A stretch of DNA of 64,000 bases from a virus: the IMG/VR virus record IMGVR_UViG_3300045988_104111, positions 1 through 64,000 of that record. One strand, written 5' to 3'. Within the stretch, counting starts at the first letter, position 1. Every line of letters starts with the position of its first letter. The notes under the pieces were generated by a model that was not told the origin of the DNA, searched no databases, and worked only from the letters and a program-made list of their open reading frames with translations. Shown in pieces: positions 15,748 to 64,000 of the stretch. A program made the translations under genes and the position numbers.

Positions 15748-15985
15748 ATCTCAGCCCCTTTCTTTTCATCAAGTAGCAATATCTGCCGCAGTCAATTAGA
15801 TAAATCGTTTCGCCAGACTTGTTTTTATGCCATTCAATAACTTTCCCGTATTGACAATGACGGGGCTTATTGTTCCAGTGGAACTTAGATGCGTAATAAA
15901 TGTCGATGTTGTTATCTTCAAACCAGTCTAGATCACCCTGCCACCAGAAGTTTTCTTCGACAATGATTGCGTTTCTTTTGTTCAT
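15740..15985 (-). CDS. hypothetical protein
   Basis: 81-aa ORF with a GGGAGGGTG SD. Confidence 0.45.
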   Translation of the reverse strand: MNKRNAIIVEENFWWQGDLDWFEDNNIDIYYASKFHWNNKPRHCQYGKVIEWHKNKSGETIYLIDCGRYCYLMKRKGLRFV

Positions 15986-16000
15986 TTGTTAGCACCCTCC

Positions 16001-16246
16001 CTATCTAAACAACATATTCTGCCATTGTTCTGACACAATTTCGATGTACTCTTTAACCGCATCGTTTACATCCACCATATTATTGTATTTTTCTATAAGA
16101 TTGTTGTTAGACCATCTATAAACCCATTTGTACTTATTGGACATGAATACAATCGAGTTATTGTAGATTGTTATGTTTCCATTCAGTTTTTGTTGAACAG
16201 AGTCTAAGAATATCTTCAGGTATTTTCTATATTCCATATCGTTCAC
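16001..16246 (-). CDS. hypothetical protein
   Basis: 81-aa ORF. Confidence 0.45.
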   Translation of the reverse strand: MNDMEYRKYLKIFLDSVQQKLNGNITIYNNSIVFMSNKYKWVYRWSNNNLIEKYNNMVDVNDAVKEYIEIVSEQWQNMLFR

Positions 16247-17280
16247 CCGGCATATAAAGATTTATACTTACGAATATGTTTTACCAATTTTTTGATATCT
16301 CGCTTTGTCGTTGTATTAGAGAATGAGACTCGAATCACGTTTGACGCATATTCTAATGGAATGTTACAAGCGGCTAGCACTCTGTAGTCTTTGTCGTCTG
16401 CACACGCGCTATGGCCTACAGACACATAGATTTTTTTCGACGCCAAGTAGGATTGTAAAGAATCTGCGCTGATATCAAACAGCAAGATAGAATTGATGGC
16501 GTTTGTTTTCTTATGCTGAGAATCTACAACATATGAGGTTAATGAATTTTTATAAAGCTGCTTTTGCAAAAACCTGGACAAATCATCAAAATGCAATTCG
16601 TTTAAGTTATCTATTGCTTTACTCAACGCATTTGTTAATTGCTCAATTCCGTTTAAATCTTTTGTACCACCTAAAGAAAATTCATATAGGCACTTGCTTA
16701 AAGCGTTGGATAACCAAACAAATCCAATTCCAGGATTAGCTCCAAATTTATGTCCAGATGCGAACACCATATCACAACAACTTGAAATATCCTCTGGAAT
16801 TTTATTGTGTCCAATGGCAGCTGTAAGATCGCAACAACAAAACGCGCCATATTCTTTACAAATATTTCCGATGGCTTCTACATCGTATATGCGCCCTGTA
16901 ATGTTGTTTGTTAGCATCTGATAAACAAAGATTTTATCATACCAACTTTTTTCTTCCAATTTATCTAACTGAACACATAAATCTGATTCATTGTTAAATG
17001 TTGAATGAGACACGTTTACAATGGATTCGTGTTCAAAGCAACTAGCCAAATTTGTGTATCGCAAGAAGCGCATTCTATAGTTTAGTTGTTCCAACAACGT
17101 GGAAACATCATGACAAAATAAAAATTTTCCATCATGCAAATTCAATTTGTTGCGGATCGTATTTTCAAAATCTTGTAATGCTACTGACTCGTTTTTAGCA
17201 TATTGTTGATTTGCATTCAGCATCCACTTGTTTTTTCTTTTAATTTCAGGACAGGTAGAAGCGTAATCCAAATATACCAT
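16243..17280 (-). CDS. class V aminotransferase / NifS-IscS-like cysteine desulfurase
   Basis: N-terminal VYLDYASTCP and the PLP-lysine block ASGHKFGANPGIGFVW. Confidence 0.6.
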   Translation of the reverse strand: MVYLDYASTCPEIKRKNKWMLNANQQYAKNESVALQDFENTIRNKLNLHDGKFLFCHDVSTLLEQLNYRMRFLRYTNLASCFEHESIVNVSHSTFNNESDLCVQLDKLEEKSWYDKIFVYQMLTNNITGRIYDVEAIGNICKEYGAFCCCDLTAAIGHNKIPEDISSCCDMVFASGHKFGANPGIGFVWLSNALSKCLYEFSLGGTKDLNGIEQLTNALSKAIDNLNELHFDDLSRFLQKQLYKNSLTSYVVDSQHKKTNAINSILLFDISADSLQSYLASKKIYVSVGHSACADDKDYRVLAACNIPLEYASNVIRVSFSNTTTKRDIKKLVKHIRKYKSLYAG

Positions 17281-44573: not shown

Positions 44574-45414
44574 TTAAAAATTCACAACGCTCATAGCGTT
44601 TACTGCACGTTGTTCGGTGCGCTTAATATATCTGTTCGCCGTAATAGCAATCGAGCTATGCCCCATCGCCTTACTAATAACCTCAATAGGTACATCTGCT
44701 TCAGACATCATGGTAGCAAACGTGCGGCGCATGGTATGATTACTAATATGCAATTCTTCCCAATTCTCAATACCAGCTTTTCTAGCTGCTACCTTGAGCA
44801 TAGCGCTGGTATTTTTGCCATCCATCTTATTGCCTTGATTGCCAACAAATAAATATTCACAACCATTTTTGCGTTCATTGGTAATATAGCTATCAATCAG
44901 CTTGATCGTCTCATCGGACAAACCAATCAATCTATCCTTATCGCCCTTACCACGAATGACTAGGATATTATTACTGCGGCTTTCATACTGTTCAAGTGTG
45001 ATATTGAGCAATTCGTGAATACGCAAGCCAGTTTGCGCAAGCATCATGATAATCGCCTTATTGCGCAAATTGGTTGCGGCATTGACCATTGCTCTGACCT
45101 GTTCGCCAGTCAGCGCAGATTGTTCACGATTCTTGATAGCAGGAGCTTCAAGAAACTCAGCCGGATTGCGCTGAATGAACTCATTCCGATATAGGAATTT
45201 GAAATATTCACGAACAGCCGATGTTCTCTGAGCAACAGATGCAGAACTGAGATTGTCCATGCTGGACTGCCACATCTCAAGATCAATAGCCTTAATTTCA
45301 GATTCAGGCTTGTTGACATACTTCAAGCAATTATTAACCGCCTTGGTATATTCTCTGATTGTACCTTCGCTACGGTGCTTTGCTTTCAAGCTCATAACAA
45401 ACAGTTCGTTCATA
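44574..45414 (-). CDS. tyrosine recombinase (XerC/D-integrase family)
   Basis: Catalytic pattern ...GLRIHEL...HTMRRTFAT...GHSSIAITANRYI. ATG 45414 follows AAGGAG. Confidence 0.8.
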
Positions 45415-45443
45415 TCATTCAGCTCCTTCATTTGATGGTTTAA

Positions 45444-45472
45444 GTATAGCACCATAGCGGCGATTTGTCAAG
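45444..45472 (-). promoter_or_regulatory. sigma-A type promoter
   Basis: Minus strand reads TTGACA-17-TATACT. Confidence 0.6.
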
Positions 45473-45948: not shown

Positions 45949-46224
45949 TTACTCATTGATTTCTGCCTTTAGTGTGCTTGTCGGCTTAAACGTCAGAGCA
46001 TACTTGGCAGGAACTTCAATGGTTTCACCAGTTTGTGGATTACGAGCCGTTCTTGCATCACGCAGCTTAGTTGTGAACTTGCCAAAGCCATGAATCACTA
46101 CATCTTCATGCTGGATTAGGCTATGTCTGATATAATCAATAAACGTATCTACGATCTCGGTTGTGTCCTTGACCGTATTCTCTGTGCTGTCTGCTACAAA
46201 CTTGATTAGTTCCTTTTTTGTCAT
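45949..46224 (-). CDS. hup: HU-type DNA-binding protein (DNABII)
   Basis: Canonical HU pattern: KKELI...GFGKFTT..RDARTARNPQTGETIEVPA...FKP. Confidence 0.9.
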   Translation of the reverse strand: MTKKELIKFVADSTENTVKDTTEIVDTFIDYIRHSLIQHEDVVIHGFGKFTTKLRDARTARNPQTGETIEVPAKYALTFKPTSTLKAEINE

Positions 46225-46726: not shown

Positions 46727-46821
46727 TGGTACTCCCGCTCCGACTCGAACGGAGATCGTGCAGCAATCTACTACCTTATGCCGGGTATAAACCGGTTGTC
46801 CTACCATTGAACGACGGGAGC
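46727..46821 (-). tRNA. tRNA gene. Anticodon UAU by manual fold (Ile, AUA codons). CCA is encoded. The variable region is unusually long (25 nt).
   Basis: 7-bp acceptor stem (G1.U72), U8, A14, GG18-19. D stem GUUC/GGAC. Anticodon arm CCGG-UUUAUAC-CCGG. T arm CUCCG-UUCGAGU-CGGAG, then A-CCA. Confidence 0.6.
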
Positions 46822-54483: not shown

Positions 54484-54900
54484 TTAATCAATCCTTTCTT
54501 CAGCAATTCCATCAGCCGTACTATAGCAAATATGCTTAATTCCCAATTCTTTTATATATTTCATACAAGCAGGACATGGACGCGCCATTGCTTTATTACC
54601 ATTTGCATATTCACGATATACATATAGCGTCGATTTGCTAAAATCAATATCCAGATATTTTACTTTGCTCAATGCCCTAATTTCAGCATGAAGCGAATTT
54701 ACAACGCCGCTCTGATTTGGATCAAATTCACGCTCTGCATTAAGCCGTTTCTGCAATGGGCTTGTTTTGGTGCTGTTGCATCCTGTAGCAAGCAATATAC
54801 CCTTATAGTACAGAGCTGCGCCAAGATGGTATCTAGGAAATTTAGATTCTTTGCTTGCTTTACAAGCCGATTCAATGCCGCGCTTAGTTCTCTGGTTCAT
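54484..54900 (-). CDS. dCMP/cytidine deaminase family protein
   Basis: Zinc motifs HAEIRAL and PCPACMKYI. Confidence 0.8.
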   Translation of the reverse strand: MNQRTKRGIESACKASKESKFPRYHLGAALYYKGILLATGCNSTKTSPLQKRLNAEREFDPNQSGVVNSLHAEIRALSKVKYLDIDFSKSTLYVYREYANGNKAMARPCPACMKYIKELGIKHICYSTADGIAEERID

Positions 54901-55075
54901 AATCTTTACTCAAATATTTATGACATTTACAGATAATCTCAATGGCTCTTTCTGCTGGAAAGAAATTAGTAGAATTATCGTCAAAAATACCATACTTCAC
55001 AAAATCTGCTTTCTCATCTGTTTCAACTTTCTTAAATGCCTCAACTGCATCATCAAGGTTGATATAAATAGCCAT
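54884..55075 (-). CDS. hypothetical protein
   Basis: 63-aa ORF. Confidence 0.4.
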   Translation of the reverse strand: MAIYINLDDAVEAFKKVETDEKADFVKYGIFDDNSTNFFPAERAIEIICKCHKYLSKDYEPEN

Positions 55076-55614
55076 TATTCGTCCACCTCATATTCCAATT
55101 CAATCAATGTCATAATAGCATAATTAGCCATATCAAGCAATGTGTCCTCGATCTTCTCATCTTTAACCTGAGCATCATGTGATACAGCAAGCGACATGAG
55201 CCGATTCATCTTATCACTAAGACGGGTCACAGCACTGATAATCCCTAGTTTTTTGTATGTGTCACCAAATGAATCACCATAGTCATGATTCTTTGCTTTA
55301 TATACCTGATTGAGCTTCTTGCAGATTGCACAATGCCGCGCCACCTTTGGTTCAATATGTAACTTAATGTCGTCAGGCTCTTTGTCACAGCATTCAGCTT
55401 CAGCATTTTCACAAGCTGCTGGATCAAGCTCTTTATACCAACCATAGATTTTATCAAGCATCTTATCGTCCATTTCATTAAATGCACAAGCATATTTATT
55501 TGTAAATTCATCTGTTTCTTTATCGTACATATTTTTTAATTCACATTTATCACAAGTATCACCACAATGGTCACAATACCATTCAAGTGTTGCCACTTTT
55601 TCATCTCTTGTCAT
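55075..55614 (-). CDS. DUF1599-like nucleotide-metabolism-associated protein with a Cys-rich N-terminus
   Basis: KNHDYGDSFG...RLSDKMNRL...DTLLDMANYAIM pattern. Confidence 0.45.
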   Translation of the reverse strand: MTRDEKVATLEWYCDHCGDTCDKCELKNMYDKETDEFTNKYACAFNEMDDKMLDKIYGWYKELDPAACENAEAECCDKEPDDIKLHIEPKVARHCAICKKLNQVYKAKNHDYGDSFGDTYKKLGIISAVTRLSDKMNRLMSLAVSHDAQVKDEKIEDTLLDMANYAIMTLIELEYEVDE

Positions 55615-55616
55615 GT

Positions 55617-56972
55617 TTATTCATCCTCCTCATTTTCATCACAATCTTCATCTACAAAATGAACATCTACATGAAATTCATTACGCAGTACATCAATAGC
55701 TTCTTTGGGGCTTACATAGAAAAATTCCTTATGTTTGTTTTCCTTATTGACTCGCTTATCGTCAAAATAATCATGGACGCGCGTCTCAAGGTCAAATACG
55801 TCATCATCAAACACAAGTCCATAGCAAACGAATGGGAACGGTACTGATGCCGACGATAATTCGGAAATTCTACGCAAGGGCTGGAGACGACGTGTTACTC
55901 CCAGCTTGCAGCAATTTGGCATAGCAGGAGTTGCCGTGATATACAAATATCCAGCTTTTGCATTGTTGACACGATAATCAATATCTGCAATACGCTTATC
56001 AATAGCTCTTAGCGTTGCTTCAAATTTAGCGCGTTCTTCAGCGTTGAGCGTCCTTCGCAGAGATTGTTCATACATACGACGTTCCTTTTGAAGCTCTGCT
56101 TTTTCGCGTTCAGCCTCAGCGAGTAACTGTTCTTGTTCTCTTAATCTGCGTTTTTCTTCACGGATTCGCGCCTTTTCTTCTTTCTGCTTGACCTTGATAG
56201 CTAAGTTGATATCTAGCATATCAAGTCGCGCTTTTACATATTCAGCATTAAGCGCTAATCCAACTTTATTTGCTTTAGACTGATAAGAATTAAATTTATT
56301 CTTAATCAATTCTTTGCTCTTAGCAACATTGTTTGCAGTTACAGATTTTTCTTTGCTGTCAATATATGCGTTGCAACTGTAAATCAATCCGCGCCCATAT
56401 ACATCTTGCATTTCTTTGCCACGTCTATCTGATCCATCGAGTCTATATCCTTGCTCAATGCGATATAAGCCAGCATTAACAGCGGATTTAATTTTACTTT
56501 GTAACTCATAGCGTCGATGCTCAAGTTCATCCAATGAATCTTGATAATATGGGATATTATAATCTTGCATTTCTTCAATCATATGGATTTGACCATTTAG
56601 AGCATCAAGGACAGCTTGAGCTTCATTCACAGCAATTTCAACGCAATCAGCCTTATTCTGGCTGGATGTAGTTAGCTCATCTAATTCCTTAATTTTTTCT
56701 TGCATTGCTTTTTGCTTGGCTTCAAGCAGGGCAATATTTTCTTTGATTACCGCTTTTTTCTTATTCAGTTTGAAAATCTCGAACACGTCTAGCCGCCTCC
56801 TTACCAAAATCTTGTCTATGTGCTTATCAAAATCCAATGGATTATTGCTCTTTGCTAAAATCTGCTTGGTGCTGGTATTATATAGCTCGAATTGCCCATT
56901 TCCGCAATCGTTGATAATCCAGCCAGTATTACCATATTGTACCGTGGGGTTAATTTTCTTTGTTCTTGGCAT
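55617..56972 (-). CDS. DUF4041 coiled-coil plus T5orf172 (GIY-YIG-related) domain protein
   Basis: C-terminal GYLYI...CKLGVTRRLQPLRRISELSSASVPFPF...EFFYV with a long K/E-rich coiled coil. Confidence 0.6.
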   Translation of the reverse strand: MPRTKKINPTVQYGNTGWIINDCGNGQFELYNTSTKQILAKSNNPLDFDKHIDKILVRRRLDVFEIFKLNKKKAVIKENIALLEAKQKAMQEKIKELDELTTSSQNKADCVEIAVNEAQAVLDALNGQIHMIEEMQDYNIPYYQDSLDELEHRRYELQSKIKSAVNAGLYRIEQGYRLDGSDRRGKEMQDVYGRGLIYSCNAYIDSKEKSVTANNVAKSKELIKNKFNSYQSKANKVGLALNAEYVKARLDMLDINLAIKVKQKEEKARIREEKRRLREQEQLLAEAEREKAELQKERRMYEQSLRRTLNAEERAKFEATLRAIDKRIADIDYRVNNAKAGYLYITATPAMPNCCKLGVTRRLQPLRRISELSSASVPFPFVCYGLVFDDDVFDLETRVHDYFDDKRVNKENKHKEFFYVSPKEAIDVLRNEFHVDVHFVDEDCDENEEDE

Positions 56973-57004
56973 TTATTTTCACCTCATGTTGTAATTATAT
57001 CACA

Positions 57005-57033
57005 TCAATTTGCATTTGTCAAGCATAATTTTT
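57005..57033 (-). promoter_or_regulatory. sigma-A type promoter (leftward, outer)
   Basis: Minus strand reads TTGACA-17-TATAAT (TGa). Confidence 0.65.
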
Positions 57034-57064
57034 GACAAATTGATTTTTCACATCAATTTAACTA

Positions 57065-57110
57065 TTATCTATGAATTTATGAATAGATAATAGTTAAATT
57101 GTAATTATAT
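57065..57110. repeat. 18-bp perfect inverted repeat with a 10-bp spacer (operator or hairpin)
   Basis: aatttaactattatctat (57065-82) pairs with atagataatagttaaatt (57093-110). Confidence 0.7.
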
Positions 57111-57190
57111 ATTATTATACTAGATATTATAGCATATAAATATTACAGTATTATGAACTATATGTTAATAAATTATGAATATATTTATAC

Positions 57191-57219
57191 TTGACAAATA
57201 CTGTAATATATGATATAAT
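57191..57219 (+). promoter_or_regulatory. sigma-A type promoter (rightward, inner)
   Basis: TTGACA-17-TATAAT (TGa). Confidence 0.65.
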
Positions 57220-57238
57220 ATATATAATAATATAAGAG

Positions 57239-57267
57239 ATTATATCACATCAATCAATTTTTGTCAA
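57239..57267 (-). promoter_or_regulatory. sigma-A type promoter (leftward, inner), face-to-face with 57191-57219
   Basis: Minus strand reads TTGACA-17-TATAAT (TGa). Confidence 0.65.
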
Positions 57268-57282
57268 GTATAAATTTTAGTA

Positions 57283-57311
57283 TTGACAAATAATCAATTA
57301 TATGATATAAT
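57283..57311 (+). promoter_or_regulatory. sigma-A type promoter of the RNAP operon (rightward, outer)
   Basis: TTGACA-17-TATAAT (TGa). Confidence 0.65.
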
Positions 57312-57340
57312 AGCATTAAGCTCAAGGAGGTGGTAGGAAA

Positions 57341-57484
57341 TTGTGGAGCGAAATGAGCTATAACTGGTATATATCGGAAGATACAGAACCAGAAGTATGG
57401 GATGATGAATATGAGCCAACTGAGCGTGATTGGGCGCTTTGGATATATGGTAGTTCAGAGAATGAATTAGAGGTGATTTATTAA
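57341..57484 (+). CDS. 47-aa acidic, Trp-rich leader protein translationally coupled to the RNAP ORF
   Basis: AAGGAGGTGG SD, TTG 57341 (or ATG 57353). TAA 57482-84 abuts the GTG 57485. Confidence 0.45.
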   Translation: MWSEMSYNWYISEDTEPEVWDDEYEPTERDWALWIYGSSENELEVIY

Positions 57485-60073
57485 GTGCCATTGACAGAGT
57501 TCTGTTATATACCTTCTGTGGCAACAGATGCTTTTTATACACTAAAGGAACAAGCAATACATAATCGGCTTGTCAGACTATACACTTTGAGAATGCGCGA
57601 AAAAGACGTTCAGAATCGAAAATGGCGTGTTTCATCAATCAACCGTGTTATCAAAAAGCATAAAGACGAGCTTGTAGCATTGCTAAAAAAATCGCTTGAA
57701 AGTAATATCACTCGAGAACTTAATCCAAATGCAGTAACAGATAAGACGATTATCAATCTGTTTTGCTCTGAGTTGACTCGTAGCCTTGGCATTAAGACGT
57801 TTGAGCGAAGTGACAAAATTATCATTGTCAATGTTTTCTTTTTCGAGGTATTAAATAGCATCATTCATAATGGTTTCAATTACAATGGGGAACATTATAT
57901 TTTCTATTCATGTGGTGCTGGCATGATACGCACAAAGCGATTCATGGCTGTTCGTGAAAAAGATTATTTAGCTGTTGAGCAAACTCTTATGTGCGGACTG
58001 ACCATTGATTCAATCAATGCGCTGGGCGGCATGAATGAAAACAAGCTATTGAGTTATAAGAGTCTTATGGCGTCTGCGACCGACAGAATTGAGAACTTTG
58101 ATATAGATCGCTGTATTGTAGTTGATGATTTTGAAATGCCGGTTATAGCTGAATCAGATTTTATTGATTATACAGATTACAGCATTACGCGAAAAACGTC
58201 TGAGACGATTATAGCTGAGACGGATGGTTGGGGTATGTGTTGCAAGTCCGGATTCAAGACGCAAATCATCCGAGCACCTTGGATAAAAGGATTGGTATCT
58301 TACTTTGATTTCAGGTCATGGCTTAAAGAATATTGTCCCGCTGACGATTGGACTGTAACCGATATATATGGTAAAGAATGGAATATTCTTGAGGACGATA
58401 TTCAGTACATCCTAACGAAGTCAATGTTTAAGCTACACAAGTTCTATCCATCTTGGCTGTGTTACAAGGCTAATTTCAAGAGCTATGGCTGCTATTTTGG
58501 TTGTTGTAAAGTTGAGGAAGATTATATCCCAAAGGCAAGAATCAATTACCAGATGCTTCAATCTTTAAGTGATATGACAGACAATGAGATTGAGCGGCTT
58601 ATTGTCAAGACGGCAGATGAAATTGATAGCGTCGGACGAGATTATCAAACTACCATGAGGCTATTAGGCGCGACCGAATATAATCAAACAAAATCAGCCA
58701 TGCAAGAAGCGTTGACAATATACCCAGAATTATTCAAAGATGCGTATAACAGGGAGTTGCTGAAACAGACAAAGAAAAGTTTGGTAAAACAAGCAAGAGG
58801 CGGTAGATTGAGAATTAACGGCAAATACTTGTTTATATCTCCAGACCCAGTTGCATTTTGTGAGTGGTTATTTAAGGGTGAGCAATTCCCAACTGGTATA
58901 CTTGAAAATGGAGAGGTTTACACCAACCAATTCAAAGACGGCGACGAGCTTGATTGTTTGAGAAGCCCACACTTGTATCAAGAACATGCAGTTAGAATTA
59001 ACAAGCGAAATGAGCTGACTGATAAATGGCTTGGTGGAACAAAATGTGTGTATTTCAGTTGCCACGATATGATTAGTCGTATATTGCAACAGGATTTTGA
59101 TGGGGATATTTCCTTGGTTGTGAAGGATAGGACGTTGACAACTGTGGCAAAGCGCAACATGCAAGGAATTGTACCGTTATCGTATGACCTCAAAAAAGCA
59201 CGTGGGGGCATTATTGATGCTGACAGATTGTATGAGGGTGTGAGTACAGCATATACAGGTGGTTCAATCGGGCCAATTAGTAACGCAATTAGTAAAGTAA
59301 AAAATGCTAATGGCGGTAAAATGACTGATGAGCAAATTAGAGTAATTGCTTGGCTCACAATGAAGAATAATCAAATTATTGATTTTGCGAAAACGTTGTG
59401 GAAAAGTGAACCGCCAAAAGAAATAGCCGATATTATCAAAAAATACACAAAATCAAAACTACCTAATTTTTTCATTTACGCAAAAGACAAAGACCCAGAT
59501 ACACAAGTTGAGCCTCCCAACAATTCCACGATGAATCGCATCTCAGCTAAAATTCCTACGTCCCGAATCCGCTACAATAACAAGATTGGGAAATTCGACT
59601 GGACGATGCTGATAAATAAGTCAGTCGATTATACCACTAGAGAAAATTCGCCAATCATCGAGAGGTATAATTGGTGGATAAGAAATCAACGTCGATTTGA
59701 CTATGGTGATGACACGCATATCAATGAGAACGATTTATATAAATATCGCCGCATAGCACAAGATATAGTGGAATATAGCAATGAACCACTAGATGTTGTT
59801 GTCAATAGTTTGGTTGCTTATTTATATACGGTCAAAAAATCAAGCAATAAGAAAATGCTATGGGCTTGTTTTGGTTGGACGATTGTAGATAATTTGAGAA
59901 TCAATACGGCGCAACTTAATCCAATCTGCCCCATTTGTGGTAAGCGGTTCAAGCCACGTGATGTATGCCAGCATTATTGTTCTGAAGAATGCTATAAGAA
60001 AGCAGATAATCAGCGGCGTATTGAATCGCGTGAAGCACCACCTGTCCGCACGGGGGATATGTTAAAACAATAG
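57485..60073 (+). CDS. YonO-like single-chain two-barrel (DPBB) RNA polymerase
   Basis: CLRSPHLYQEH...VYFSCHDMISRILQQDFDGDISLVV (beta-prime-type metal motif). Upstream QIIRAPWIKGLV barrel-like block. C-terminal zinc ribbon. Confidence 0.65.
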   Translation: MPLTEFCYIPSVATDAFYTLKEQAIHNRLVRLYTLRMREKDVQNRKWRVSSINRVIKKHKDELVALLKKSLESNITRELNPNAVTDKTIINLFCSELTRSLGIKTFERSDKIIIVNVFFFEVLNSIIHNGFNYNGEHYIFYSCGAGMIRTKRFMAVREKDYLAVEQTLMCGLTIDSINALGGMNENKLLSYKSLMASATDRIENFDIDRCIVVDDFEMPVIAESDFIDYTDYSITRKTSETIIAETDGWGMCCKSGFKTQIIRAPWIKGLVSYFDFRSWLKEYCPADDWTVTDIYGKEWNILEDDIQYILTKSMFKLHKFYPSWLCYKANFKSYGCYFGCCKVEEDYIPKARINYQMLQSLSDMTDNEIERLIVKTADEIDSVGRDYQTTMRLLGATEYNQTKSAMQEALTIYPELFKDAYNRELLKQTKKSLVKQARGGRLRINGKYLFISPDPVAFCEWLFKGEQFPTGILENGEVYTNQFKDGDELDCLRSPHLYQEHAVRINKRNELTDKWLGGTKCVYFSCHDMISRILQQDFDGDISLVVKDRTLTTVAKRNMQGIVPLSYDLKKARGGIIDADRLYEGVSTAYTGGSIGPISNAISKVKNANGGKMTDEQIRVIAWLTMKNNQIIDFAKTLWKSEPPKEIADIIKKYTKSKLPNFFIYAKDKDPDTQVEPPNNSTMNRISAKIPTSRIRYNNKIGKFDWTMLINKSVDYTTRENSPIIERYNWWIRNQRRFDYGDDTHINENDLYKYRRIAQDIVEYSNEPLDVVVNSLVAYLYTVKKSSNKKMLWACFGWTIVDNLRINTAQLNPICPICGKRFKPRDVCQHYCSEECYKKADNQRRIESREAPPVRTGDMLKQ

Positions 60074-60141
60074 GAAATATATAGATAAAACGAACTCACC
60101 ACAACATATTGTGGTAAACTAATAGGGGAAGGACGATATAA

Positions 60142-60561
60142 TTGCATAAAAATAAATATCCTCGGCTAGGTAAAGCCGATATGAGCAAAGAGTTACGACG
60201 GCGTACAGGCGTTGATTCTAAAATTATTGAATTAGTATTAAGAAATTATCATGATATTATCCGCGAGACACTACAGCATGGCGTGGAGTATTCACTACCT
60301 GATATTGGTGTTATTACATTCCGCGACCATCCACCTAAACCAGCTGGAGAATATTGGAATGGATTCCAAAAGCGGCGTATGTACTATCCTGACAGAATGG
60401 GATATTATCGGTTAGAGTTCAAGGCTGAGAAGCATATGGCTAGTTATGTAAAAGCTGGCACATTGTATGGTAAAGGTCCAACCAAAGAAGAATGGGACGC
60501 TTGGGTATTAGAGAATTATCCCGACAATCCTAAATTCATGAAGGAAGAAGAAGATGGCTGA
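60142..60561 (+). CDS. divergent DNABII (HU/IHF-fold) protein
   Basis: LPDIGVITFRDHPPKPAG...YRLEFKAEKHM follows the HU G.G.F....R.....P..G......F+ layout with an extended arm. Confidence 0.5.
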   Translation: MHKNKYPRLGKADMSKELRRRTGVDSKIIELVLRNYHDIIRETLQHGVEYSLPDIGVITFRDHPPKPAGEYWNGFQKRRMYYPDRMGYYRLEFKAEKHMASYVKAGTLYGKGPTKEEWDAWVLENYPDNPKFMKEEEDG

Positions 60562-61117
60562 ATATAACAAGCTGAATCAGGAATTTTATGCTTATGCGGC
60601 TAGTTTACTTGAATCCAAACCAGAGACAGTAAAAAAGTATTGGCAAGCATGTGTTGACACAATTGTGCATATATTGCATTTTGATGGTAGGTGTCAAATG
60701 CCGGGGGTTGGTACGTTTAGATTAAAGCAACATCCTGAACGCAGAGTAATGGCTAAGAATGAAGCTGGTGAACTTGTTGAGCAAATTAACCCAGCTTGGT
60801 TTAGTATAACCTATGACGCAAATGACGCATTTATAAACAATGTAAATGGTAAAGGTGTAACCAAATTATATCGTCAAAGGGTAAGAAATCGTAAGTTGAC
60901 ACCTAATGACTTAAAGTTAATTACCCAAGCAGAAGTAGAGCGAACAGCCCGAAAGACGCTTGAGCAAATGGCACAAGATCGTATGGAGCAAGCAAAGCAA
61001 CAGAGCTACGATGATTTCATCAATGTAATCAATAAGAAAAAAGAAGAATACGAACGGAAAAAGAAGGAAAAGGAACAGAAACTGAATGAATCTACAGAAG
61101 ATACGACAAGCGACTGA
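60554..61117 (+). CDS. divergent DNABII (HU/IHF-fold) protein with a K/E-rich tail
   Basis: MPGVGTFRLKQHPERRVMAKNEAGELVEQINPAWFSITYD follows the HU core pattern. Confidence 0.5.
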   Translation: MAEYNKLNQEFYAYAASLLESKPETVKKYWQACVDTIVHILHFDGRCQMPGVGTFRLKQHPERRVMAKNEAGELVEQINPAWFSITYDANDAFINNVNGKGVTKLYRQRVRNRKLTPNDLKLITQAEVERTARKTLEQMAQDRMEQAKQQSYDDFINVINKKKEEYERKKKEKEQKLNESTEDTTSD

Positions 61118-62267
61118 GCTACTAGATAGCAAGTTAATTGACTTGCAAGAATGGACGGCGCGTTGTCTTGGTGAAGATTATAGGGGCGTTTGGTCAGAGG
61201 AATATCTACGCAGATGTGCCGTATTTGTTCGCAATATGCTAAACGGCGCAGATGATTGTGAATCAGACGAAAAGGATGCCAATATTCTATCACAGCTTAG
61301 AGAGGCTAAGATTGAGTTAGAAAAAGAACGCAAGAAATTACAGACAACTGGATTACAAATTCAAGAAAATTATAGGAATCTTGCCCGTAGTGAGTTAATG
61401 ATTGAACAGATTGGAGACGCTATTCGTGGACTTGACCAAATAGTTATTAAACAATTTGAGCATACAAATCCTCAGCAAAGGACAGCTCTGCTTGTTGTGG
61501 CAGACCAGCACTATGATTCCAATTTTAAGGTTGATGGATTGTGGGGAGAAACAGTAAATCTTTATAATAAAGACGTTTTTGCAAATCGTATGTGGAGTCT
61601 TTTGGCAAAAATGGATGCCGATAAATTTGATTATGATGTATTAAAGGTGGTATCATGTGGCGATGCACTTGAGGGACTTATCAGAATGTCATCCTTGCAA
61701 AAACTACGCCAACCTGTTGTGAAATCTACGATTGAATTTGCGGAATTTATGAGTCAATGGCTTGTTGAAGCAAGCAATCGTTTGGGTATTCCTGTCGAAT
61801 TCGCAATAGTTCCGGGAAATCATTCAACTCTCAGAATACTTACACAAAAGCCAGAGTTTCCAGAGGAGAACTTAGAATATATCATTCATAAGTTTATCGA
61901 AATCAGGCTTGAAAATGAAGAAAATGTGACTGTTGAACCATATAACGACGTTTATTTTACAACTATCTATAATGAGAACATGGTATTTACTCATGGAGAA
62001 AATAAAGACATATCTGATGTAATAAGGCATCTTGAAAATATGTATGATGTGACCATTGACAGATGTTATGCAGCACATTATCATAGTAGTTCAACTAAAG
62101 ATATTGGCGTTGGCAACGTTGGAGCCAAACAAATTATTCGTGTTCCTTCAATTTGTGGAACAGACCCATATGCTGTGAAATGTTGTAAAAATAATCGTGC
62201 TGGTGCATATTTTGCTGTTTTTGATGAAGACGGCGAATGTTTTAATAAAATTTATTATTTGTCTTGA
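61086..62267 (+). CDS. calcineurin-like metallophosphoesterase
   Basis: Ordered motifs ADQHY, CGDALEG, PGNHS, THGEN, AAHYHS. Confidence 0.65.
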   Translation: MNLQKIRQATELLDSKLIDLQEWTARCLGEDYRGVWSEEYLRRCAVFVRNMLNGADDCESDEKDANILSQLREAKIELEKERKKLQTTGLQIQENYRNLARSELMIEQIGDAIRGLDQIVIKQFEHTNPQQRTALLVVADQHYDSNFKVDGLWGETVNLYNKDVFANRMWSLLAKMDADKFDYDVLKVVSCGDALEGLIRMSSLQKLRQPVVKSTIEFAEFMSQWLVEASNRLGIPVEFAIVPGNHSTLRILTQKPEFPEENLEYIIHKFIEIRLENEENVTVEPYNDVYFTTIYNENMVFTHGENKDISDVIRHLENMYDVTIDRCYAAHYHSSSTKDIGVGNVGAKQIIRVPSICGTDPYAVKCCKNNRAGAYFAVFDEDGECFNKIYYLS

Positions 62268-62292
62268 CATAAGTAAAGATATATGGTATAAT
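62264..62292 (+). promoter_or_regulatory. sigma-A type promoter overlapping the upstream stop codon
   Basis: TTGACA-17-TATAAT (TGg). Confidence 0.65.
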
Positions 62293-62298
62293 ATAATA

Positions 62299-62355
62299 AA
62301 GCGGGACAGGGAGTAGCTACCTTGCCGAGTGCCCTTAACACTTGGCTAACCGCTT
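62299..62355 (+). other. 57-nt three-way-junction-like leader structure
   Basis: Outer helix AAGCGG/CCGCTT enclosing CAGGG-8nt-CCTTG and GCCGAGTG-ccctaa-type hairpin GCCGAGTG/CACTTGGC. Confidence 0.3.
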
Positions 62356-62379
62356 AAAATAAATAATCTTTAAGGGAGA

Positions 62380-63177
62380 TTGATATTTGTTATGGTAAGA
62401 AAATATACTTATGAAGCAATTTGTAAAATTTTTGAAGAAAAGGGATTTCTTGGCTGTCTAATAGATACAAAAGAAGATTTTGAAAGAAAAGGGAAAGAGC
62501 ATAAAACAACACCATTATATACAAAGATGAGGTTTCATTGTAAATATTGTGGAAATGAATTTGAAAGAAGCTTAGCTTGTGTGAAAGTATGTGTGAGACC
62601 TTGGCTTTGTGGACCATGTTCTCAAAGTGAGGGTGCAGAAGATCAGAGAAAAGATTATGCAAAGTGTAAACAAGACATACAAGACAAGGGATTTACGCCT
62701 TTATTTAATCCAGAAGATATTCATACAGTACATCAAAAAGTTAAATGTATTGGTTCGTGTGGGCATGAAGTTATAACAAGTGTTCGTGCGTTTTTAAGAG
62801 CTAAGACATCTTTATGCGCTGAATGTGCGTCTCAAATACATTGTGGTGAGAATAATTATAATTGGAAGGGCGGTTATGAAAATGAAAAGATACGATTTAG
62901 AAAAACATATGAATTTAAGTCATTTGTAAGAGCTGTTCTAAAAAGAGATAATTATACTTGTCAGTGTTGTAATAGAAATTCCAAGAAAACCAAATTGGTA
63001 GTGCATCATAAGGATGGATATAATTGGTGTGTCGAAAAACGAACGGATGCAGATAATGGCGTTGTATTGTGCGAAGACTGTCATAAATTGTTCCACAACA
63101 TTTATGGAGCAGGAAAGAACACTAAGGAACAATATGATGAATTTATAAAGACACACTATGGCTTAATATGGGAATAA
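62380..63177 (+). CDS. HNH endonuclease with multiple zinc-ribbon repeats
   Basis: VVHHKDGYNWC...NGVVLCEDCHKLFH. The start could be TTG 62380 or ATG 62392. Confidence 0.7.
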   Translation: MIFVMVRKYTYEAICKIFEEKGFLGCLIDTKEDFERKGKEHKTTPLYTKMRFHCKYCGNEFERSLACVKVCVRPWLCGPCSQSEGAEDQRKDYAKCKQDIQDKGFTPLFNPEDIHTVHQKVKCIGSCGHEVITSVRAFLRAKTSLCAECASQIHCGENNYNWKGGYENEKIRFRKTYEFKSFVRAVLKRDNYTCQCCNRNSKKTKLVVHHKDGYNWCVEKRTDADNGVVLCEDCHKLFHNIYGAGKNTKEQYDEFIKTHYGLIWE

Positions 63178-63508
63178 TTGTGCGCATTGCTCATGTTGTT
63201 TGAAGATGGGCAAAAGACATGGACTAAGAAATATGTTTTGAATTAAATCTATCCTTGCAATAGCAAGTTTAGAAATATCCGAAAGGAGGTCACTATTCTC
63301 TTGAATTATCCACTGGTTTATCCGAAGCATAATTAAAGAAAGGATGGTGGTCAGAGCCAATCGGCTCATATCTACAATAAGCCCAACTCAATGGGGACTG
63401 TTGTTTAACTGAATATTGAACCTTGACAAATACGAAGCAACTGAGAGCAATCTTGGTTGCTTTGTCATATTGATAGGAAAATAAACGGAAATTGAAAGGA
63501 ATGAGAAT

Positions 63509-64000
63509 ATGTTTTGCCCATATTGTGGCAAGGAAAAGCAAGATAGCCAATTCTATAAAAGCCCAATCAAAACGGGCGAATATATTAAACCATGTAAATC
63601 ATGTGTGACTGAGCTATATAAGCAAGCTCTTGAAATTACTAAAGACCAAGGCGCGGCACTATGGTCAACTTGTATGCAGACGGGTATCCCTCTGCGCCGG
63701 GCTGAATATACTGCTTGTCTTGATACACTAGAAAAGGCGGCTAAGGGCAAAAAGCCTAGTTTGTTTATGTTGTATCACACATATTTATCAACATCGCCTG
63801 ATAAGCTAACGGGCGTATGGGATAGCGATATGGAGTTGTCTAATTTCAAGGATTTGGGCGATGTTGCTAAGGGTGAAACTGATGAGGTGGCGCTTAAAGC
63901 GAGATGGCGCAAACAATGGGGCGGCGACTATGAGGATGAAGATTGTCAGTGGCTAGATGATATGTTTGATAGCTATACGGCAGATATATTTGAAATGGAC
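63509..64000 (+). CDS. partial ORF (runs off the window), N-terminal zinc ribbon; function unknown
   Basis: ATG 63509 after AAAGGA; open for 164 codons to the window end. MFCPYCGKE...CKSC pattern. Confidence 0.5.
   Translation, partial: MFCPYCGKEKQDSQFYKSPIKTGEYIKPCKSCVTELYKQALEITKDQGAALWSTCMQTGIPLRRAEYTACLDTLEKAAKGKKPSLFMLYHTYLSTSPDKLTGVWDSDMELSNFKDLGDVAKGETDEVALKARWRKQWGGDYEDEDCQWLDDMFDSYTADIFEMD

Follow-up and report, generated by a model that had tools for sequence, protein, structure and literature searches.

A probable YonO-type RNA polymerase and its conserved gene neighborhood in an SPβ-like gut phage

A YonO-type single-chain, two-barrel, DNA-dependent RNA polymerase (RNAP) of an SPβ-like, probably temperate gut phage is very likely encoded by the open reading frame (ORF) at positions 57485-60073 on the plus strand of the DNA analyzed here. 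This DNA, hereafter the window, is a 64-kb stretch comprising positions 1 to 64,000 of the IMG/VR virus record IMGVR_UViG_3300045988_104111. The assignment is based on homology, sequence motifs, a predicted fold, synteny, and the distribution of promoters. YonO of phage SPβ is a processive DNA-dependent RNAP for which an Asp triad is essential (Forrest et al., 2017, PMC5467207). Starting upstream of yonK, it reads the late genes of SPβ as a single operon; the 2017 study explicitly left open which promoter it uses and whether it depends on host or phage factors (PMC5467207). In the following, the SPβ locus is referred to as L001, the loci of other relatives carry L-numbers, and the polymerases of relatives carry P-numbers.

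Homology, motifs, and predicted fold of the polymerase

In a tblastn search of GenBank phages, the 862-amino-acid product, which initiates at GTG, matched SPβ yonO with 39.6% identity over residues 3-832 (96% coverage, E = 6e-167). The same search recovered yonO of approximately 25 SPβ-like Bacillus phages, Psychrobacillus phage Perkons, and Clostridium phage D-1873 (40.7%), as well as more distant matches at 22-30% in Enterocloster, Thomasclavelia, and C. botulinum c-st phages. Among the PHROGs, phrog_8308 (function unknown) matched residues 7-842 with an E-value of 1e-224. A phmmer search of the PDB sequences returned only spurious zinc-finger matches, hence a structure prediction was needed.

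Conservation was assessed in alignments of 13 and 43 homologues, the latter spanning 38-96% identity. The catalytic stretch ELDCLRSPHLYQEHAVRINK...VYFSCHDMISRILQQDFDGDISLVV, which had been pointed out in an earlier note made from the letters alone, was present as described, with LRSPHL at residues 492-497 and DFDGD at residues 537-541. In both alignments, LRSPHL, E500, and D537/D539/G540/D541 were invariant, and only the second position of the DxDGD motif varied (F, N, V, C, or W). Further invariant residues included D247-G248-x-G250, R263/P265/K268/G269 (R-P-x-x-K-G), G146-x-I148-R149-x-K151 (AGxIRTK), and the cysteines 815, 818, 832, and 836 of a C4 zinc finger. The second-barrel motif DGWGMCCKSGFKTQIIRAPWIKGLV (residues 247-271) was likewise found where one had been proposed, although its distance upstream of DFDGD is about 290 residues and not about 250.

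An AlphaFold model built on the 43-sequence alignment reached a predicted local distance difference test (pLDDT) score of 88.9 and a predicted template modeling (pTM) score of 0.83. Its strand clusters were located at residues 210-273, corresponding to a beta-like barrel with the motifs DGWG (247-250) and R263/P265/K268/G269, and at residues 446-546, corresponding to a beta-prime-like barrel that bears LRSPHL and D537/D539/D541. The model predicts two double-psi beta-barrels in one chain, with the beta-like barrel in the N-terminal position. In a Foldseek search with this model, the 21 best PDB matches were all two-barrel cellular RNA-dependent RNA polymerases (RdRPs), including maize and Arabidopsis RDR2 and Neurospora QDE-1 (E = 1.5e-19 to 5e-13, TM-score up to 0.56), and no unrelated family was found on top. 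The RNA polymerase gp64 of phage P32 followed, and then, weakly, the largest subunits of multisubunit RNAPs. With its full-length homology to YonO, its invariant motifs, and a predicted fold matching QDE-1 and RDR2, the protein conforms to the single-chain enzyme of the YonO/RdRP lineage that had been proposed. It had also been claimed that no other RNAP-subunit-like ORF lies nearby, and a non-exhaustive scan of 28 window ORFs returned no sigma factor or RNAP subunit.

Besides YonO, several known systems offer comparisons. QDE-1 and RDR2 share with the window protein a single chain in which a beta-like barrel lies N-terminal to a DxDGD-bearing beta-prime-like barrel (E = 1e-19 to 1e-13, TM-score 0.4-0.56). 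However, the window protein is only 11-14% identical to them and scores below the Pfam RdRP model. By its homology to YonO, its template would be DNA and its role phage late transcription, whereas QDE-1 and RDR2 act in RNA silencing. The gp64 protein of phage P32 (PDB 8f72) likewise holds a two-barrel core in a single phage-encoded chain (Foldseek E = 2e-6), but the match is much weaker (TM-score 0.27), and its lineage and genomic context are different. The virion RNAP of crAss-like phages is another phage single-chain two-barrel RNAP, again of a different lineage and context; no evidence of virion packaging was found for the window enzyme.

The cassette around the polymerase gene is syntenic with the SPβ order yonP-yonO-yonN...yonK-yonJ...yonG-terminase. 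The shared order runs from a small ORF (yonP position) through the polymerase (yonO), DNABII (yonN position), and a YonJ-like exonuclease to a YonG_N-like gene, with TerL next in relatives. The window protein and YonO have the Asp triad, LRSPHL, the beta-like barrel motif, and the C-terminal Cys4 cluster in common, while the catalytic motif is DFDGD in the former and DNDGD in the latter. Differences from SPβ were observed in the surrounding genes. Specifically, the upstream small protein of the window is unrelated to YonP, and two diverged DNABII-like genes occupy the place of the single canonical yonN of SPβ. These two genes overlap the YonJ-like gene in one string, whereas SPβ has a 1.7-kb non-coding gap with the YonO-dependent start. 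Mapping of the published primer-extension primers placed this start at L001 8306 to approximately 8498, leaving 0.3-0.5 kb between it and the upstream yonN and 1.2-1.4 kb between it and the downstream yonK. In addition, the window polymerase gene is unsplit, unlike the split yonO of several SPβ-like phages.

The host and genome also differ from those of SPβ. Close relatives were found on contigs of 76-101 kb from human-gut metagenomes, and the source phage is probably an SPβ-like, temperate phage of human-gut Firmicutes with a genome of approximately 80-100 kb. A megablast search of positions 57000-61500 against GenBank phages returned no match, and hence no close sequenced isolate of the phage.

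Perfect host-type promoters were defined as 12/12 matches to the sigma-A/sigma-70-like consensus TTGACA-17-TATAAT. Such promoters had been claimed to precede the cassette, and two were located on the plus strand, P1 at 57191-57219 and P2 at 57283-57311, the latter 30 nucleotides (nt) upstream of the start of the small ORF. Both carry the TG extension (TTGACA-17-TG-n-TATAAT), and two opposite-facing promoters lie in the same divergent intergenic region (57267-57239 and 57022-56994). A total of 13 perfect promoters was found in the window, spanning 29420-62292 (29.4-62.3 kb), where well under one would be expected by chance according to our estimate. The set is unusually uniform, as most of its members have the TG extension and a shared TTGACAA... 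start.

Three blocks were distinguished in the window. The plus-strand block of 1-14 kb encodes tape-measure, virion, and tail proteins; the minus-strand block of 14-57 kb encodes DNA polymerase, helicase/exonuclease V, ribonucleotide reductase, integrase, and similar genes; and the third block is the plus-strand polymerase cassette. The 13 promoters are located in the early/replication block, in the divergent region that surrounds the cassette, or in front of the gene for a homing endonuclease, and none of them is in the tape-measure/tail block of 1-14 kb. With host-type promoters in front of the polymerase gene and none in the structural block of the window, the context is consistent with transcription of the late operon by the window polymerase, which is inferred by analogy with SPβ.

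A terminator scan identified no plus-strand intrinsic terminator after the polymerase gene, so the DNABII-like and YonJ-like genes may be co-transcribed with it. A small hairpin, ACCACAA-CATA-TTGTGGT, is present on the plus strand between the polymerase and the first DNABII-like gene (60098-60115) and was found in at least 25 relatives. The substitutions observed in it keep G-U pairing on the plus strand, and no U-run follows.

DNABII-like genes and polymerase mosaicism

Two overlapping, diverged DNABII-like ORFs had been described after the polymerase gene, and both ORFs are present there, with an overlap of 8 nt. DNABII-like protein 1 (60142-60561, plus strand, 139 amino acids) has an HU/IHF-type body, a lengthened and diverged arm, and an acidic tail. 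It passed the curated cut-off of the Pfam family PF00216 (Bac_DNA_binding, 22.4 bits) with a score of 24.2 bits (E = 4e-5) and matched phrog_379, 'DNA binding protein'. Its best matches among the PDB sequences were African swine fever virus (ASFV) pA104R and HU. The model of protein 1 is of low confidence (pLDDT 53, from a shallow alignment of eight sequences), and its top 50 Foldseek matches, all HU/IHF, are therefore taken as supportive only. DNABII-like protein 2 (60554-61117, plus strand, 187 amino acids) consists of approximately 100 HU-like N-terminal residues and a Lys/Glu-rich tail. Its PF00216 score of 17.6 bits (E = 0.0045) is under the cut-off, and its assignment comes from profile comparison, where its family profile aligned with HU at 95% probability (E = 2.8e-8, 85 columns); the PDB HU entry 3rhi was matched with an E-value of 0.0028. 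Both proteins are longer than HU, which has approximately 90 amino acids. The canonical R-N-P-x-T-G arm tip is absent from both; in this region, the alignments show 'HPPKPAGEYWNGFQKRRMYYPDR' for protein 1 and 'ERRVMAKNEAGELVEQINP' for protein 2.

Both proteins are kept in gut relatives, with E-values from 1e-10 to 6e-44; for protein 1, the homologues were found at 6e-44 and 1e-10. When compared by hhalign with the corresponding pair of Enterocloster phage PMBT24, protein 1 matched a 118-amino-acid 'histone-like' protein (93.9%, 102 columns), and protein 2 matched the adjacent 164-amino-acid 'DNA-binding protein' (91.6%). The cross-comparisons of the two pairs were negative (2.4% and 0.3%). Since only the matched comparisons were positive, the pair is orthologous in the two phages, although their polymerases share only about 26% identity. 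No similarity was detectable between protein 1 and protein 2. The two adjacent, mutually dissimilar, overlapping genes resemble IHF alpha/beta in this respect, and it is from the paired, overlapping genes only that an IHF-type heterodimer may be proposed. TF1 of phage SPO1 is a further DNABII relative for comparison.

The polymerase itself was found to be mosaic. Block-wise identities indicated that it recombines as two modules, with a breakpoint near residue 650 (about nt 59435). Compared with the window polymerase, P0031 and P0032 are 38-88% identical over residues 1-650 and 90-100% identical over residues 651-862. For P0010, P0020, and P0027, the identities are mostly 60-96% over residues 1-650, falling to 34-56% over residues 651-862 and lower still at the extreme C-terminus. 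The C-terminal module (approximately residues 651-862) is helical/zinc-finger and carries the C4 cluster of C815, C818, C832, and C836. On contigs of the P0031/P0032 kind, the small protein is 89-96% identical and DNABII-like protein 1 is 80-100% identical to the window counterparts, and window-like sequence also persists at the 3' end of the polymerase gene and in the intergenic stretch after it. Together with the block-wise identities, these conserved neighbors show that the catalytic core has been swapped between conserved flanks, and that the C-terminal module is inherited with the DNABII genes. The co-inheritance could be simple linkage; a co-adapted specificity module would leave the same pattern, a reading of low probability.

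Other interruptions of the polymerase locus were also observed. In L018, L024, and L030 (4145-4938), the small ORF and the polymerase are separated by an inserted gene for an HNH endonuclease. In other contigs (L016, L020, L021, L023, L028, L032, L037, and L038), the polymerase frame breaks at residue 537 (DFDGD) or 633. The broken frames resemble the split yonO of SPβ-like Bacillus phages and c-st, which suggests that introns or homing elements target the polymerase gene.

The earlier note had proposed the DNABII-like proteins as dedicated architectural cofactors of the polymerase. The expected adjacency was observed in SPβ, Perkons, D-1873, c-st, TR-TP1, PMBT24, and every gut relative whose sequence reaches that far. 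However, conserved adjacency could also reflect a conserved phage backbone, and an alternative with slightly less than an even chance is that the pair serves replication, compaction, packaging, or the YonJ-like exonuclease/terminase and lies beside the polymerase as part of an SPβ-like backbone. The DNABII genes overlap the YonJ-like exonuclease gene, with which they are probably co-translated, and they lie just upstream of the YonG_N-like gene, with TerL next in relatives. In TR-TP1, it is the exonuclease gene and not the polymerase gene that the IHF-like gene overlaps. The whole module order is common to every genome examined, and the linkage may thus be inherited rather than selected. YonN, moreover, is known only as a non-specific DNA-untwisting homologue of HBsu (PMC3258159). 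Against the backbone alternative, the YonO-dependent start of SPβ lies just downstream of yonN, the DNABII pair is co-inherited with the C-terminal module of the polymerase, and general functions could be covered by a separate canonical HU in the window. This HU gene was found at 45949-46224, as had been noted, and is on the minus strand. By sequence, it, and not either of the two ORFs beside the polymerase, is the closest YonN match in the window (44% identity, E = 6e-19). A role of the DNABII pair in packaging, in replication, or beside the YonJ-like exonuclease is at least as likely as a role in transcription.

The small acidic protein upstream of the polymerase

A 47-codon ORF at 57341-57484 on the plus strand occupies the yonP position, and its TAA (57482-57484) is immediately followed by the GTG of the polymerase. 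The ORF had been described as acidic and Trp-rich, and its translation contains five Trp and 14 Asp/Glu with a single basic residue (Arg). It starts at TTG, carries a W-x-E-M-S-Y motif, and has its own strong Shine-Dalgarno (SD) sequence AAGGAGGTG at 57324-57332, 8 nt upstream of the start. A second SD, GAGGTG (57470-57475), lies inside the end of the small ORF and precedes the polymerase start. No Pfam or PHROG family was found for the small protein, and it showed no similarity to YonP, Perkons ORF216, or the D-1873 ORFs. The sequence 'FMEIEY' in Perkons was considered as a relaxed form of the motif and was too weak to count.

The W-x-EMSY motif was found in a small ORF directly 5' of the polymerase gene in the window and in L004-L010, whose polymerases are 57-96% identical. 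When all retrieved loci were translated in six frames, the motif occurred nowhere except in the ORF 5' of the polymerase. A scan of IMG/VR started from the peptide alone, with matches confirmed against the first sequence, yielded 25 contigs, all of them close relatives, and a YonO-like gene was located downstream of the small ORF in every one. The junction between the two genes varied among these contigs: TAA|GTG abut in nine, start and stop overlap as TTGA in 13, and an inserted HNH gene splits the junction in three. Since the small ORF is intact in the three contigs with the insertion, translational coupling is usual and not obligatory, and the ORF persists without it. The distribution and constraint of the sequence point to a genuine conserved protein gene.

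The observations are compatible with two roles of the protein, that of a polymerase partner and that of a host-directed inhibitor or DNA mimic. The second possibility, in which the protein would target the host by inhibiting host RNAP or mimicking DNA and thereby shut off host transcription, is unlikely overall and still carries some weight. T7 Gp2 is an analogue of such a phage-made inhibitor of host RNAP. The strongly acidic and Trp-rich composition would suit this role, as would production together with the polymerase from early promoters. The small protein also keeps about 90% identity beside polymerase cores of only 56-67% identity, a pattern more in keeping with a host target than with a partner of the core. 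In contrast, no homology to any known inhibitor was found, and a polymerase partner would equally account for the strict linkage of the two genes, which holds even where the polymerase is only about 24% identical.

It is unlikely that the ORF is only a translational leader that sets the dosage of the polymerase and encodes a functionless peptide. While its stop codon touches or overlaps the start of the polymerase gene in 22 of the 25 relatives, and while the peptide belongs to no known family and is unlike SPβ YonP at the equivalent position, three observations oppose a leader. First, the pooled ratio of nonsynonymous to synonymous polymorphism (pN/pS) is 0.21 over 21 distinct sequences. Second, Thomasclavelia phage TR-TP1 carries WSEMSYNRY in the ORF 5' of its polymerase, with WSEMSYN identical to that of the window, although the polymerases themselves share only about 24% identity. 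Third, the ORF is intact in L018, L024, and L030, where the HNH gene parts it from the polymerase by about 0.8 kb.

Possible late leader, family status, and biological meaning

The 393-amino-acid YonJ-like exonuclease is encoded on the plus strand at 61086-62267, with 27% identity to SPβ YonJ (E = 6e-39) and a match to phrog_284, 'exonuclease' (E = 3e-33). It is an orthologue of YonJ. Its gene overlaps that of DNABII-like protein 2 by 32 nt, and its counterpart in L009 carries the Pfam domain YonJ_CC. It is followed by an inserted homing-endonuclease cassette (62264-63177, plus strand), which comprises a perfect host-type promoter (62264-62292), a conserved 5' element of approximately 100 nt (62287-62388), and a gene of the HNH families (62380-63177). 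The cassette is absent from the equivalent site of L009, a 96%-identical relative. The 5' element recurs upstream of unrelated endonuclease genes (NUMOD3, GIY-YIG, and I-TevI-like) in relatives, and the 3' end of the yonJ-like gene is present as a second, displaced copy at 63182-63246.

The 5' part of a YonG_N-like gene (63509-64000, plus strand) then runs off the window. It was recognized by similarity to L009: window positions 63274-64000 are 91% identical to L009 15705-16428, and the L009 gene at 15937-16761 carries the Pfam domain YonG_N and has TerL downstream. The YonG_N-like gene is presumed to be the first gene of the late packaging/structural operon. Upstream of it, an alignment of five diverged relatives revealed a conserved non-coding leader (63301-63465, plus strand), in which a strong SD with an 11-codon upstream ORF (63301-63336) is followed by the AACTGAATATT block (63407-63417), which is invariant, and by a strong hairpin (63432-63465). 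The hairpin has a z-score of -4.6 in the window; hairpins of different sequence reach -4.1 and -7.9 in other lineages, and that of L010 is weaker (-1.7). The AACTGAATATT block is single-copy in each genome region examined. The leader could be a late promoter, an attenuator/insulator, or a packaging (pac) element.

No motif common to the SPβ start region and the window was found by which a late promoter could be transferred from SPβ. The partial match CTGAATATT in SPβ is downstream of the primer and not significant (0.26 expected by chance). AACTGAATATTG was also considered as a repeated late-promoter motif, and its single occurrence in the window is at chance level, with only its conserved position being of interest. 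At gathering thresholds, Rfam identified nothing in or near the cassette in the window, SPβ, and two relatives. The sole relevant match was the DUF3800-VIII sRNA motif at L001 9381-9446 in the yonN-yonK gap of SPβ, where the late transcript made by YonO has a long non-coding leader that includes the motif. This motif may be the 'unannotated non-coding RNA' of Forrest et al. (PMC5467207), and the Rfam scan found no counterpart of it in the window.

Additional genes were identified on the minus strand at 44574-45455, 54484-55614, and 55617-56972, where a tyrosine integrase, a dCMP deaminase, a DUF1599 protein, and a T5orf172/MUG113 nuclease-like protein are encoded. The integrase gene in the minus-strand block suggests a temperate lifestyle. 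The dCMP deaminase and the DUF1599 'nucleotide modification associated' protein adjoin the cassette, and the phage DNA may thus be modified. The nuclease-like gene is divergent from the polymerase promoters, a position that is kept in relatives. A tRNA-Ile with the anticodon TAT (46727-46821, minus strand) has a length of 95 nt compared to the usual approximately 75 nt; the Rfam tRNA match covers 92 nt for a 71-position model, and the gene may contain an insertion or intron.

In the mechanism proposed here, the host RNAP would transcribe the cassette early from the two tandem consensus promoters, and the W-x-EMSY protein and the polymerase would be translated as a coupled pair. Transcription would probably run on into the overlapping DNABII-like genes and the YonJ-like exonuclease gene. 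With the Mg-binding triad D537/D539/D541 in the beta-prime-like barrel catalyzing RNA synthesis, the phage polymerase would then take over the plus-strand packaging, structural, and lysis operon, parallel to YonO on the SPβ late operon. The small protein and the DNABII pair are put forward, purely hypothetically, as assisting the polymerase, for example in promoter recognition or DNA opening. A more specific version is rather improbable, namely that the small protein, a DNABII heterodimer, and the C-terminal zinc-finger module together form the missing initiation apparatus of YonO-type polymerases. This apparatus would recognize or open a late promoter near the AACTGAATATT/hairpin leader, where the hairpin would stop host RNAP and not the flap-less phage enzyme.

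Several points weigh against a YonO-type late polymerase with this cassette. The case for this phage is built on sequence, synteny, and a predicted fold, and the DNA-dependence, late-gene specificity, and host-polymerase independence of the enzyme are carried over from SPβ. Neither the window polymerase nor YonO reaches any Pfam model. The searches yielded no polymerase-specific promoter, and nothing significant corresponds to AACTGAATATT at the start site in SPβ. The part of the late operon between the right and left ends of the window lies outside the sequence analyzed and may contain host-type promoters. The function of YonN could just as well be filled by the canonical HU located elsewhere in the window. 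Finally, the modular exchange argues against tight co-evolution of core and flanks, with the small protein and DNABII-like protein 1 at approximately 90-100% identity beside polymerases of only 56-67% identity.

The polymerase belongs to a large family, in which 1162 clusters at 50% identity were found with E-values of at most 1e-3, including 298 with E-values of at most 1e-30. The exact window polymerase is already in public collections, within a 772-member gut-metagenome cluster at 90% identity, one member of which is deposited as 'MAG TPA: RNA dependent RNA polymerase [Caudoviricetes sp.]'. Besides this deposited name, activity on RNA templates in the manner of QDE-1 or RDR2 has in its favor that some relatives pass Pfam PF05183 (P0031 and TR-TP1 score above its gathering threshold), that the best structural matches are cellular RdRPs, and that the DFDGD region weakly matches a PHROG named 'RNA-dependent RNA polymerase'. 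It is nevertheless extremely improbable, as YonO, at about 40% identity over the full length, is a processive DNA-dependent RNAP transcribing phage late genes (PMC5467207), the database label is a name carried over from Pfam, the window protein itself has no PF05183 match even at E <= 1, and a double-stranded DNA tailed phage offers no evident RNA template. Given the biochemistry of YonO and the homology to it, the RdRP label in public records, derived by name transfer from PF05183, is most probably wrong. The window polymerase is a YonO orthologue in a syntenic SPβ-like module, and no new kind of enzyme.

In practical terms, abundant gut-phage genes carry the label 'RNA-dependent RNA polymerase' in public records. 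YonO is the only characterized member of this large family of minimal single-chain relatives of cellular RNAPs. To it, the comparisons presented here add a W-x-EMSY family, an orthologous DNABII pair, a modular C-terminus of the polymerase, and a conserved late-leader element. The question of the YonO promoter and its cofactors thereby gains a short list of candidates, which are the small acidic protein, the DNABII pair, and the C-terminal module of the polymerase, together with one conserved non-coding element before the first packaging gene.

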